The notes beneath the pieces were generated by a model. It saw only the letters and a list, made by a program, of their open reading frames with translations, searched no databases and was not told the DNA's origin. A stretch of 61,959 nt of DNA, the filler included. It is 5 parts of 5 records of this genome, joined end to end, with 100 filler letters (N's around TTAATTAATTAA, not from the genome) between each part and the next. Parts side by side here need not be neighbours in the genome. Positions count along the whole stretch, not along the records: positions 1 to 16,830 come from SRR22947727_6018; 4 more parts are not named here. One strand, 5' to 3'. Within the stretch, counting starts at the first letter, position 1. The number at the start of each line of letters is the position of its first letter. This document shows, one piece after another, positions 1 through 18,026 of the stretch. Position numbers and translations under genes: made by a program.

Positions 1-30
1 TCGTCGGTTCGATCCCGTCTGGCTCCACCA
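1..30 (+). tRNA. tRNA-Ala, 3' part only (truncated by window edge)
   Basis: TCGTCGGTTCGATCCCGTCTGGCTCCACCA = T-arm (GGTTCGATCC), Ala-type acceptor 3' strand and encoded CCA; anticodon lies outside the window. Confidence 0.85.
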
Positions 31-255
31 AATCACTTTGAAATTTCACTACAGTTGACATCTGCCATGGCAGGGTGCAGCGATTAGTCTGCTGTGCTAT
101 GCTGATTTTGGGACATTAGCCATTGGATGGTGCCTCAATCGAGCCGGTAAAATCATGCAAAGGATTTGCCTTCAACAACGCTTTCAATTACTTCATTTTT
201 TGGTACACTAAGTTAGCGTTCATAATTCAAAATTGTCACAATATGGGAGATTGCT

Positions 256-960
256 ATGCAACTGGATATGAAACAGTCCGACGACTCCTATTCGATGGCC
301 GCAAAAGAGCGGATGGCTATTGAGTTAGACGGGTTAGTTTGGCGTCTTAATGAAGTTGGATCTGCGCTTGCCACTCTTAATATTTTTCGACGCGCTGATA
401 TCGAGATCGAAGGCAAAAAACGCCGGCTAAACGATTTTGCCCAAGTTGATCTTGGCCCGGATCCGATGGCGGGTACATTTAAAGTTATTATTCATAACCC
501 AGTTGCTATTCCGGGTGCCGTTGCTGTTCTCAAAGAGAATAAGTTTATCAATATTGATATGAGCTCGAAGCGGGAGTTGAAAGTTGTTAAGCCAAGGTTA
601 ACGGCACAACAGGAAGATGATTTGGAAACTGAAGTAAAGCGGGTTACTAAATCGTCACTCTCCAAGCTGGCATCGATTAAATCGGACGCTTTACAACGAG
701 TTCAGGCAGCAATTAAAGCTGAATACATAGAGCCAGCAGAATCTAAGAAAGCGACATTACAACTTGATGATTTGATCCGTCAGGCTGGTACGCATGCCAG
801 TATTCTGGGGCTGATTAGACGCAAACAATTAATCGGTGGTGGTTTGACCTTTGATGGACCAGAAGAAGAAGCCCTATACAAGCGGATTAATGACCGGGCT
901 TATAAAGACGTATGGCAAGACATGCTGTTGCCAAAAGTTGGAGAAGACGACGATGATTAG
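256..960 (+). CDS. Divergent ribosome recycling factor (RRF/Frr)-like protein with C-terminal extension
   Basis: SD GGGAG upstream of ATG. By-eye colinear match to RRF: AAKERM~[19 protein letters not shown]~[29 protein letters not shown]~[22 protein letters not shown]~NVRRDA. Signature motifs are degenerate. Confidence 0.7.
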   Translation: [234 protein letters not shown]

Positions 961-969
961 TAGCACCTT

Positions 970-1863: not shown

Positions 1864-2444
1864 CTAGATGCGCGTGCAAAACAATTTTTTCACCTGCCAT
1901 TCGGTGCGGCTGATTCGGGCATTGTTCAACGTGCCTTCAATGGCAATTTGAAATTGATTTAGCCGCCATCTGGCATTGGGGGTGAGGCCGGTATTTTGTT
2001 TGGCAATCAAGATCAGGGCGAGGGCTTTTTCCAGATCGCGTTTGATGCCTTTCCCATTTGCCATCATCACCGCTAGATTATATTGCGCGGCGACATGATG
2101 CCGTGCGGCGGCCAGGCGATAAAATGCGCTGCCAGCCCTAAATCCTTTTGCACACAGCGGCCTTTTTCATAAGATACCCCAAGGTGAAACAACGCCCCTT
2201 CATGCTCCTCATAAGCGGCCATGGTAAACCAGATATTAGCCTTGGCATTGTTAGTTGCAGCATTTTGGCTTTGATCTTTTAACAGCTTCAGACCGGTCAT
2301 ATAGTGCATCTGCGCTTTGCTACGATCGTCGGCTTGAAGCTTGCCAGCGCTCGCATGCACAAGCAGGATCAGACCAATCGTCAAAATCAGCACCATTTTG
2401 CAACGGGTCTCGAACTGGCTGAGGATTGAAATTGGAGAGGTCAT
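1864..2444 (-). pseudogene. Sel1-like repeat protein with N-terminal hydrophobic segment, split by a frameshift
   Basis: ALFHLGVSYEKGRCVQKDLGLAAHF continues as YRLAAARHHVAAQYNLAVMMANGKGIKRDLEKA if one T is added to the T4 run (2121-2124); strong SD AAGGAGG. Confidence 0.75.
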
Positions 2445-2970: not shown

Positions 2971-3048
2971 TTATAGCTGCGCCTTGCTTTATAGGGCGCG
3001 CTCAATTCCGGCTTGAACTCTGGCATTGCTGACAGGCATCATCACTTT

Positions 3049-3378
3049 ATGAACGATAAAAGCGCAAAATTTGGCATTGGTGCGATTGTACGTCATCGCG
3101 TCTATCCGTTCCGTGGCGTCGTTGTTGATGTTGATCCTGAATTCGACAATACCGATGAATGGTACGAAGCCATTCCGGCCGAAGTGCGTCCCGATAAAGA
3201 ACAGCCCTTCTATCATCTCCTCGCGGAAAATTCGGACAGCTATTACACTGCCTATGTAAGCCAACAGAATTTGCTTCCGGACGGTGAAAATGGCCCGGTT
3301 AGCCATCCTGACGTTGATGATATGTTTGACGGGCTTGATGGCGAACGCTATGTGCTTCACCCAGAGGCATTTAATTAG
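3049..3378 (+). CDS. hspQ: Heat shock protein HspQ (YccV family)
   Basis: AKFGIGAIVRHRVYPFRGVVVDVDPEF...QPFYHLLAEN...AYVSQQNL. Confidence 0.93.
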   Translation: MNDKSAKFGIGAIVRHRVYPFRGVVVDVDPEFDNTDEWYEAIPAEVRPDKEQPFYHLLAENSDSYYTAYVSQQNLLPDGENGPVSHPDVDDMFDGLDGERYVLHPEAFN

Positions 3379-17344: not shown

Positions 17345-18026
17345 GGGGGCCAATACGAGCCGGAGGCCAGAACCGAAACACCGCCCGCCCAATGATTTGA
17401 TCATCGGGAAGGAAGGGTCCACCTGGCCAACGGCGGGCGTCCTGACTGTTCCTTCGGTTATCGCCAAGAACCACCACCTTGCCCTTCGGAACTGATGCAT
17501 AAAGCCCCTTGCAACCGGGCATCCCGCTATCGGTGATGCAGTAATTAGAGACGTAGGACTCCTCAAAACGCTTGCCGTTAATCGATACCTGCCCTTGAGC
17601 ATTCACCTCGATGACATCACCAGGCACGCCAACGACACGCTTAATCCATGCTTCGCACTCTGGATAACGCTGCAAAAGAACCCGATCGACGACCCAGCTC
17701 ACCCCTGGGAAGGTGACTAATCCACACTTCAAGGGATCCGGGCGGCCGGCATCTAACATCCAAACCGGGTCAAATGCCGTCGGTGAATTGAACACAACGA
17801 TGTCGCCTCGGCGGGGCGGCTTTGCTTTGTAGGAAAGCTTTTCAACGATCAATTTGTCGCCGACCTGCAGGCCTGGAAGCATCGATCCCGATGGGATGTA
17901 CCGCGCCTCAAAGGCAAACTGCCGAATCAGAAGATAAATGGAAACAGTGAATAGGAATGGAGCCCAGAACTCCCATATGGCACTGACTTTGCTTGACACA
18001 CCCGAAGGGTCTTTCTCCGCGTTCAA
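17334..18026 (-). CDS. lepB: Signal peptidase I
   Basis: ARYIPSGSMLPGLQVGDKL, IKRVVGVPGD, LGDNRRNSQDAR, IIGRA; start approximate (TTG). Confidence 0.93.
   Translation of the reverse strand: MNAEKDPSGVSSKVSAIWEFWAPFLFTVSIYLLIRQFAFEARYIPSGSMLPGLQVGDKLIVEKLSYKAKPPRRGDIVVFNSPTAFDPVWMLDAGRPDPLKCGLVTFPGVSWVVDRVLLQRYPECEAWIKRVVGVPGDVIEVNAQGQVSINGKRFEESYVSNYCITDSGMPGCKGLYASVPKGKVVVLGDNRRNSQDARRWPGGPFLPDDQIIGRAVFRFWPPARIGPLSD

Follow-up and report, generated by a model that had tools for sequence, protein, structure and literature searches.

A diverged ribosome recycling factor paralogue of marine Alphaproteobacteria with a possible connection to the flagellum

Introduction

Ribosome recycling factor (RRF, product of frr) is regarded as a single-purpose, single-copy translation factor. 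The gene considered here, at positions 256 to 960 (plus strand) of a stretch of DNA of 61,959 nucleotides, filler included, encodes a protein that is a real, strongly diverged paralogue of RRF and almost certainly not the recycling factor of the organism. This stretch is the whole of the DNA that was analysed and is referred to below as the window (62 kb). The source names of close homologues point to Alphaproteobacteria and, within them, to Puniceispirillaceae; the genera and families compared carry working labels, g1 being the genus of the window. An earlier interpretation, made from the letters alone and called here the sequence-only reading, had seen in this gene a neofunctionalised RRF-fold protein that might serve as a ribosome hibernation or anti-recycling factor, as a decoy for EF-G or as a non-ribosomal adaptor. 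Its observations and its idea of a paralogue hold up, and of the three proposed roles the last finds the most to recommend it: relatives of the gene lie in a fixed slot beside motB, and one of them is fused to a blue-light-sensing BLUF domain.

The gene and its predicted product

The open reading frame (ORF) encodes 234 residues and closes with a TAG at 958-960. The good Shine-Dalgarno sequence with which it had been credited is present, and the start at 256 is supported by the N-terminus, since the pattern M-x-L-x-[ML]-K-x-S-D-D-S-Y-S is kept in homologues. The features of the gene and of its predicted product are as follows.

245 to 250, plus strand: Shine-Dalgarno-like GGGAGA, read directly, six bases 5' of the ATG at 256
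256 to 960, plus strand: coding sequence of the 234-residue RRF-fold paralogue (profile matches, AlphaFold2 model and Foldseek; 178 homologues at E<=1e-3)
283 to 294, plus strand: D-S-Y-S, residues 10-13, at the start of helix 1 (helix 11-46 in the AlphaFold2 model); most conserved motif of the family, its placement at the bundle tip being inferred from topology
394 to 591, plus strand: domain II, residues 47-112, an inserted alpha/beta domain that separates helix 1 from helix 2 (modelled with strands and a helix)
592 to 603, plus strand: hinge P-R-L-T, residues 113-116, equivalent to the canonical P-D-L-S (hhalign map, canonical P103 against P113)
604 to 717, plus strand: helix 2, residues 117-154, with the former rRNA-contact block Q119 E120 ... 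A139 S140 I141 K142 S143 D144 (hhalign map)
721 to 735, plus strand: tip loop E-Y-I-E-P, residues 156-160, at the junction of helix 2 and helix 3; second signature of the family, from conservation
736 to 834, plus strand: helix 3, residues 161-193, of the three-helix bundle (helix 160-193 in the model; aligns to the last helix of canonical Frr)
835 to 957, plus strand: C-terminal extension, residues 194-234, beyond the RRF match and with no counterpart in canonical RRF
958 to 963, plus strand: tandem in-frame stops TAG TAG, read in the sequence; kin have a single TAG (L001) or TAA (L014, L015)

The tail of about 40 residues ending in EDDDD that had been noticed from the sequence thus comes to 41 residues, which comprise a G-G-G-x-x-F motif, an E-E pair, two short helices (202-212 and 214-222, modelled at a predicted local distance difference test score, pLDDT, of 51-77) and the acidic EDDDD tail itself, which is restricted to a close group of homologues. 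The product is predicted to be cytoplasmic, no signal peptide or membrane segment being visible in its sequence.

Within the genus, the ratio of nonsynonymous to synonymous substitution (dN/dS) of the paralogue is 0.034 at a dS of 0.107 and 0.037-0.046 for near-saturated pairs, and 95 alignment columns are invariant among 17 homologues whose identity ranges down to 57%. The gene is under strong purifying selection within the genus and evolves fast between genera. Its identity to canonical RRF, 14%, is of the kind that a decaying duplicate without function might show, and that explanation is scarcely credible in view of the low dN/dS, the many invariant columns and the finding that the gene is intact in all 35 of the genomes that carry it; to these may be added the weak evidence that contigs of four metatranscriptome libraries cover the gene.

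Relationship to ribosome recycling factor

The similarity to RRF is colinear in every test and covers both domains, with scores that are weak. Pfam PF01765 aligns residues 35-176 with profile positions 9-147 of 164 (E 2.4e-5, 24.7 bits, the cut-off of 29.7 bits not being reached), TIGR00496 aligns residues 18-171 with positions 2-152 of 176 (18.6 bits, likewise short of its cut-off of 149.1), and phmmer against the sequences of the PDB finds 1eh1 at E 0.13. Profile-profile comparison by hhalign, with 24 members of the family on one side and eight canonical Frr proteins of kin on the other, returns a probability of 95% with E about 1e-8 to 4e-8 over 164 columns, at the 14% identity already mentioned. 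An AlphaFold2 model of the 234-residue protein, built from 17 homologues with a mean pLDDT of 78.5, contains a helix at 11-46, an alpha/beta unit at 48-111, helices at 117-154 and 160-193, and two short helices within 202-222. Foldseek comparison of this model with the PDB gives 26 matches at E<=0.001, the best at E 6.4e-9 and with template modelling (TM) scores, normalised by target, of up to 0.77; every match listed is an RRF, whether bacterial, mitochondrial or chloroplast. The colinearity that had been drawn by eye against Escherichia coli RRF, over about 180 residues, holds in each of these comparisons.

What the protein shares with Frr (PF01765, TIGR00496; structures 1eh1, 1is1, 1ek8, 6vud and 4gfq) is the two-domain fold with its order of elements and the hinge P-x-L-[TS], and about 185 of its 234 residues superpose. 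What it lacks are both of the arginine signature blocks. In the computed alignments the canonical L-R-A-G-R-A reads V-G-S-A-L-A, E-E-R-R-K-D reads A-Q-Q-E-D-D and R-N-I-R-R-D reads A-S-I-K-S-D, so that the substitutions that had been read by eye, GSALA for RTGRA and ASIKS for RNVRR, are both present. Nine of the 13 arginines that are invariant in the eight Frr proteins of kin are replaced (R11, R28, R31, R63, R109, R110, R129, R133 and R153), with a reversal of charge where canonical R110 becomes E120, and the other four (R12, R83, R99 and R132) are still arginine or lysine. Among these, canonical R12 and R83 correspond to R19 and K93, and R132 to K142, a lysine in 21 of the 24 family members; canonical D134 is unchanged as D144, and the hinge proline P113 is a proline in 18 of the 24 family rows. 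The protein further differs from Frr in its own signatures DSYS and EYIEP, in the 41 extra C-terminal residues, in a locus outside pyrH-frr-uppS, in missing both curated cut-offs and in its low identity. Four defining features of Frr were testable: the fold is present, and scores above the cut-offs, the arginine blocks and the near-universal gene in pyrH-frr-uppS are not. Searching by tblastn with the canonical Frr of kin leaves the paralogue undetected at E<10, which marks divergence only, and overall charge and isoelectric point overlap between canonical copies and paralogues and do not discriminate between them.

The organellar RRFs (human mitochondrial RRF, 6nu2 and 7l08; chloroplast RRF, 6eri) likewise combine the RRF fold with extensions and match the model at Foldseek E values of 1e-6 to 2e-4. 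They are, however, orthologous recycling factors that are ribosome-bound in those entries, whereas in the window protein the contact arginines are gone and the extension is C-terminal. The extension of organellar RRFs is N-terminal.

The paralogue beside a canonical frr

In the 61 genomes of the family, canonical frr is found at 204-221 bits in 53. Eight of the nine genomes of g1 hold both canonical frr and the paralogue, as do all four carriers outside the family (G069, G254, G384 and G452), and the canonical frr of kin sits in pyrH-frr-uppS with LRAGRA and RN[IV]RRD intact. The 62-kb window itself contains no canonical frr. A tree of 33 paralogues and eight canonical kin, from which the partial rows P0148 and P0167 were left out, places a long branch between the two groups, with full support in the Shimodaira-Hasegawa-like approximate likelihood ratio test (SH-aLRT 100); within the paralogues there are several deep subclades that do not follow genera, some long branches and basal forks without resolution. 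The coexistence of the two genes bears out the suggestion of a neofunctionalised RRF-fold paralogue with a separate frr in related genomes.

The ninth genome of g1, G001, which is the nearest to the window, shows the diverged copy only. Together with the RRF fold and the automatic name 'ribosome recycling factor' given by JGI, this might be taken to mean that the paralogue is a fast-evolving, working second RRF, redundant or specific to some condition. Such an explanation is very unlikely: G001 is 94% complete in 200 contigs and the other eight genomes of the genus have canonical frr, the protein scores too low for the cut-offs of Pfam and NCBIfam and has lost the signature arginines, and the gene was not found in 26 of 61 relatives. 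The working second RRF and the decaying duplicate are accordingly both disfavoured, and the window protein very probably does not recycle ribosomes.

One genome, G038, has two canonical frr genes (C62:14835-15314, 204 bits; C51:1245-1727, 202 bits); with 3% estimated contamination, this may be a binning artefact.

Family signatures and distribution

A profile of 17 close members, searched against 1.84 billion representative proteins, finds 53 at E<=1e-3, about 25 of them full length (212-268 residues) and one of 409 residues, and no canonical RRF at that threshold. The named members come from uncultured, mostly marine Alphaproteobacteria ('Alphaproteobacteria bacterium' assemblies, Tara Oceans sequences and one record that is probably mis-binned), and their automatic names are either 'hypothetical protein' or 'ribosome recycling factor', the latter being the JGI usage. 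The sequencing runs that contain the locus are likewise mostly seawater or marine metagenomes. Neither the 50,697 phage records searched by tblastn nor viral contigs gave a match, so that nothing points to a phage or viral origin in these collections.

Conservation across 22 representatives is concentrated in two places. In D-S-Y-S, Y12 is conserved in 100%, S13 in 91%, S11 in 82% and D10 in 68%; in the tip loop, E156 is conserved in 95%, I158 in 82% and Y157 in 68%, and this loop has the lowest mean entropy of all regions (1.32 bits), followed by the hinge. Domain II is the least conserved region (mean entropy 2.52 bits), with R56 at 86% and D60 at 91%; these two residues, the hinge from P113 to T116, K142 and R148 are the other best-conserved sites, and G194 is kept in 77%. 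Since helix 1 runs towards domain II and helix 2 runs back, the start of the one and the end of the other would lie together at the far tip of the bundle; on this topology, DSYS and EYIEP should form a single patch there.

The gene is accessory. By the family profile it is present in 35 of the 61 family genomes (33 of the 55 that are at least 90% complete), which represent 8 of 13 genera, and it was not found in the other 26. Among 401 class-level genomes it occurs beyond its own family only in families f10 and f123; the other hits are canonical frr at 36-67 bits, and the tally of 401 includes one genome, G101, with a match at the level of canonical frr only. A bacterial family of RRF paralogues, a fusion of RRF with BLUF or an RRF-like gene in a flagellar cluster is not reported in the full-text literature, a search that did not cover subscription journals and in which supplementary gene lists could mention the gene. 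The family is small and, within the literature searched, undescribed, in keeping with the earlier impression that this was an undescribed system.

The flagellar gene context

Twenty-three neighbourhoods were fetched and their ORFs clustered. They contain a conserved flagellar gene cluster with the order fliO-P-Q-R, flhB, genes for proteins of 82, 90, 245 and 262 residues, a slot, motB, motA, a gene for an Lcl_C protein and rpoN. The stretch from fliOPQR-flhB to motB-motA is common to g1, g3, g5, f10 and f123, and MotA, MotB_plug and OmpA domains were confirmed in the cluster. The slot before motB is occupied by an RRF-like gene in g3 (L047 and L048; two genomes), downstream of motA-motB and on the same strand, and again in f10 (L056, from G069, and L024, from G254; two genera), 34 bases after a gene for a 256-residue protein and also on the same strand. 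It is empty in g1 and g5, where it measures 345-360 bp and no remnant of the RRF-like gene was found, and in f123, where it measures 9 bp. MotA of g3 is 72% identical to that of f10 and 79-81% identical to those of g1, g5 or f123, and between g3 and f10 the RRF-like proteins are 26% and their 262-residue neighbours 29% identical. Given these MotA identities and the similar divergence of the RRF-like proteins and their neighbours, the shared slot looks old, and not like the result of a recent transfer between g3 and f10. Between the flagellar-cluster protein of g3 and the window protein, identity is 30.8% over 224 residues (E 8e-32); the former groups with the clade of the latter (SH-aLRT 90), and the family signatures D-S-Y-S and E-Y-I-[ED]-P are both present in the window protein.

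The four genes between flhB and motB (L048 3814-5958; L047 6721-8858; L056 4051-5979; L060 9614-11757), which are present in five lineages, match no Pfam or NCBIfam family; they encode an 82-residue membrane protein, a Cys-rich protein of 90 residues, a 245-residue coiled-coil membrane protein (topology judged by eye) and the 262-residue protein.

Co-occurrence with FliP links the paralogue to flagella at the level of the genus. Among the 61 family genomes 30 have both the paralogue and FliP, 5 the paralogue only, 12 FliP only and 14 neither, which corresponds to an odds ratio of 7.0 (Fisher p 0.0017, uncorrected for phylogeny). The five genomes with the paralogue only (G001, G025, G034, G043 and G059) are fragmented or incomplete and belong to genera that are otherwise FliP-positive, the paralogue is missing from all 12 genomes of the four genera without FliP, and all four carriers outside the family have FliP. 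Carriers of the family thus occur only in genera that have flagellar genes.

On the strength of this confinement to flagellar genera, of the slot shared by two distant lineages and of the BLUF fusion in one genus described below, the family is modestly favoured to consist of adaptors or regulators that have to do with flagellar motility, and not of translation factors. For the window protein itself the same role is held with a confidence that falls slightly short of even, and a number of observations weigh against it. The window gene lies outside the flagellar cluster and no flagellar gene occurs in the 62-kb window; G016, another genome of the genus, has an empty slot and carries the paralogue 1.8 Mb from fliP. 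Beyond the co-occurrence at genus level, the link depends on relatives that are 26-31% identical to the window protein. That the strain of the window is flagellated would follow only from the presence of FliP in six of nine genomes of the genus, and the nearest genome, G001, at the completeness given above, shows none. Twelve FliP-positive genomes, including all three of genus g4, do without the paralogue, which is consequently not a core flagellar part. The co-occurrence amounts to few independent contrasts, the four non-flagellated genera, and could reflect lifestyle or general genome content. Most carriers hold the gene in unrelated neighbourhoods (g5, g7, g8, g11, g13 and the second copy of f10). 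Finally, the hinged two-domain shape, the retained K142, R19 and K93 and a set of newly conserved basic residues (R56, R129, R148 and K/R188-189) might be expected just as well of a protein that binds RNA or the ribosome, and the tip patch is placed from topology and not from coordinates, its partner being only putative.

Some precedent for accessory genes of this kind exists. MotF, of 24 kDa, and FliL, from Rhodobacter (Cereibacter) sphaeroides and Sinorhizobium, are accessory proteins of the stator or motor whose genes are lineage-restricted and lie beside motAB (PMC7277832), as does the RRF-like gene in its slot. Both are anchored in the membrane and have periplasmic domains, whereas the RRF-like protein looks soluble. 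The 245-residue neighbour in the cluster is linked to MotF by size alone, a matching transmembrane stretch having been judged by eye from the start of its sequence.

The BLUF fusion and other contexts of relatives

In genus g5, three of four genomes have, in addition to a stand-alone copy, an RRF-like protein of 413-415 residues with a C-terminal BLUF domain and a Lys/Ala-rich tail (Pfam BLUF E 2.9e-24, RRF E 7.5e-8). The metagenomic representative of 409 residues is also such a fusion (BLUF E 1e-23, RRF E 3e-11). Fusion genes identified by Pfam are the following.

L017, 4066 to 5313, minus strand: RRF-BLUF fusion
L042, 846 to 2087, minus strand: RRF-BLUF fusion
L043, 1444 to 2688, plus strand: RRF-BLUF fusion

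The complete g5 genome has no BLUF domain other than that of the fusion. This domain matches the photoactivated cyclase 4yus at E 3.7e-13 and keeps the Y, Q and W..M positions, which are presumably the residues of the photocycle, so that the domain is apparently intact, as far as its sequence can tell. More broadly, known BLUF photoreceptors (OaPAC, 4yus; bPAC, 5m27; the BLUF-EAL protein BlrP1; AppA) match the g5 domain at E 4e-13 to 3e-5; in the fusion the RRF-like part occupies the place that an output domain holds in these photoreceptors, but, as a difference from them, the BLUF domain is C-terminal to its partner. A sensor fused to an output module is the usual wiring of sensory input. No BLUF domain (PF04940) was found in the window protein, in the 62-kb window or in the g1 genomes G001, G003 and G016, and the family profile found no longer fused forms in the range of 717-2045 residues. 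An AlphaFold2 model of the fusion, made from an alignment of four sequences, was poor (pLDDT 46.8) and was not used.

Other relatives have other neighbours. The copies in g7 have a gene for a cyclic nucleotide monophosphate (cNMP)-binding protein about 1.1 kb away, and in three genomes a cryptochrome/photolyase-like gene whose sole domain is FAD_binding_7 is found about 1 kb from a second copy in f10.

L054, 5989 to 8526; L055, 5989 to 8833; L025, 3 to 2048: region of the second f10 RRF-like copy, with a J-domain protein and a full photolyase nearby

Such contexts raise the question of whether the protein is a general signalling output or adaptor tied to neither flagellum nor ribosome. It could then provide a scaffold for protein-protein interactions in the response to light or stress, and the flagellar slot of two lineages would be just one use among several. 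The g5 fusion, the cryptochrome/photolyase-like gene and J-domain protein beside the second f10 copy, the cNMP-binding protein of g7, the proximity of ibpA, hspQ and iscR-suf in g1 and the change of neighbourhood from genus to genus all fit. Each of these contexts is, however, lineage-specific and could be due to chance, the three g1 genomes searched lack BLUF, and neither the confinement to flagellar genera nor the recurrence of the slot in two families is explained. On balance a role of this general kind is unlikely.

Possible functions

The suggestion that the protein acts at the ribosome, as a hibernation or anti-recycling factor or as an EF-G decoy, found nothing in its support. Translation genes are absent from the neighbourhoods of every lineage with the exception of rpmF, 1.8 kb away in the genus of the window only. 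Matches to EFG_IV number at most one per complete genome, with two in G021, and no partner EF-G paralogue was found in the complete genomes. Nevertheless, the general case for a ribosome-directed regulator deserves attention: a tRNA-shaped mimic that docks in the intersubunit or tRNA space without splitting ribosomes, and that could be an anti-recycling or hibernation-type factor, a decoy for the single EF-G or a translational controller, possibly of flagellar mRNAs, in which last case the flagellar gene contexts would be accommodated as well. Most paralogues of translation factors (PrfH, ArfB, EfpL, BipA and Tet(M)) still act on the ribosome. The whole hinged two-domain shape of RRF is kept with its P-x-L-T hinge, as are K142, R19, K93 and D144, and several basic positions are conserved throughout the family. 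The loss of most of the invariant arginines and the reversal of charge at E120 argue in the other direction, as do the absence of translation genes and of an EF-G paralogue, the patchy occurrence of an accessory gene and the fact that the most conserved sites are DSYS and EYIEP and not the canonical contact residues. A ribosome-directed role is thus rather unlikely, if less so than that of a general signalling adaptor.

For the favoured connection with flagellar motility, a speculative mechanism may be sketched. The RRF scaffold would serve as a rigid rod that exposes, at its far tip, the family patch composed of the D-S-Y-S that opens helix 1 and of the E-Y-I-E-P loop. Either a protein of the motor, stator or export gate or a regulator of flagellar gene expression might be bound there, with domain II and the C-terminal extension providing a hinged second contact and with sensory input arriving through BLUF in some kin. 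In g1 the gene would have left the flagellar cluster for the tRNA-Ala/ibpA locus and gained an in-frame small ORF downstream. Put in full, an ancient RRF duplicate may have been recruited, through its tip patch, as a cytoplasmic component of the flagellar motor or export apparatus or as a regulator, and may in some SAR116-type Puniceispirillaceae be gated by blue light through the fused BLUF domain; in this specific form the proposal is tentative, and clearly less probable than the broad connection with motility. A variant of the same recruitment would be a translational controller dedicated to the flagellum that still visits the ribosome.

The implications differ with the site of action. Should the family act at the flagellum, it would be a clear case of the reuse of a translation-factor fold in another machine and a new accessory part for the flagella of abundant marine bacteria; should recruitment and BLUF gating both be true, a translation-factor fold would have become a light-controllable flagellar brake, clutch or assembly factor. 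An action on the ribosome would make it a recycling-site ligand of a new class. Either function might be tested by means of the BLUF-fused relative, in which nature supplies a light switch, and a cultured member of the genus with an 82%-identical copy (LSUCC0744, according to its NCBI name) makes the question experimentally accessible.

The locus around the gene

The neighbours that had been named from the sequence, a tRNA, ibpA, rpmF and hspQ, are all present.

1 to 30, plus strand: 3' end of tRNA-Ala(UGC), cut by the start of the window; identical bases end a complete tRNA-Ala(tgc) in kin L001, L014 and L015
970 to 1206, plus strand: conserved ORF of 78 residues, in the frame of the paralogue behind TAG TAG and two sense codons
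1299 to 1739, minus strand: Hsp20/IbpA gene, convergent
2785 to 2970: L32 (rpmF)
3013 to 3378: YccV/HspQ-like gene

The order tRNA-Ala, RRF-like gene, small ORF, ibpA on the opposite strand, Sel1 gene, rpmF, hspQ and iscR-sufBC is kept within the genus and differs between genera. The tRNA-Ala(tgc) of kin is called by ARAGORN and matches the Rfam tRNA model at 65.9 bits. A weak match to transfer-messenger RNA (tmRNA) at the tRNA end (15.6 bits against 47) arises because the end of tmRNA is tRNA-Ala-like, and a two-piece tmRNA upstream was rejected, kin having a plain tRNA-Ala. A conserved 5' leader or small RNA in 31-255 was rejected as well, the spacer being unconserved within the genus and Rfam yielding nothing else there.

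Apart from stray automatic labels, the 303 close homologues of the 78-residue ORF are either nameless or 'hypothetical'. The ORF is conserved in its C-terminal 45 residues and matches no Pfam or NCBIfam family. It is specific to the genus and stands in the frame of the paralogue in all four genus loci, separated from it by one or two stops and by one to three sense codons, and may be co-transcribed with it. Coupling of the two is probably by termination and reinitiation and not by readthrough, since two of the four stops are TAA; programmed readthrough, with the stop moreover doubled in the window, is thought unlikely. A complex prediction for the RRF-like protein with the 78-residue protein gave a median of 0.31, against a mark of 0.34 and controls at 0.00, which speaks neither for nor against a complex.

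Scans for sigma-70 promoters and terminators gave results at or below chance, and no sigma-54 site was found upstream of the gene on the plus strand, the count over the whole window being 49 against 44 expected. Elsewhere, at 17978-17993 (plus strand), lies a perfect sigma-54 consensus, TGGCAC-N5-TTGCW, the sole site in the window with zero mismatches.

The coverage by contigs of the four metatranscriptome libraries is compatible with expression of the paralogue, contigs being no proof of transcription. In one library, X4, depth is 92-413 over the paralogue and 5-10 at 1810-2000, a contrast that another, X18, does not show, and one contig of an RNA library spans 505-1101, which is no proof of a single transcript. 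For the Hsp20/IbpA gene, contig depths in two metatranscriptome libraries from seawater add up to 10^3 to 3x10^4, as compared with tens to hundreds for the RRF-like gene. The Sel1-repeat gene at 1864-2444 (minus strand) is divided in the window into two ORFs in different frames (123 and 68 residues), which may reflect a frameshift, a pseudogene or an assembly error; in a locus of the same genus (L014 3105-3767) it is a single ORF of 220 residues.

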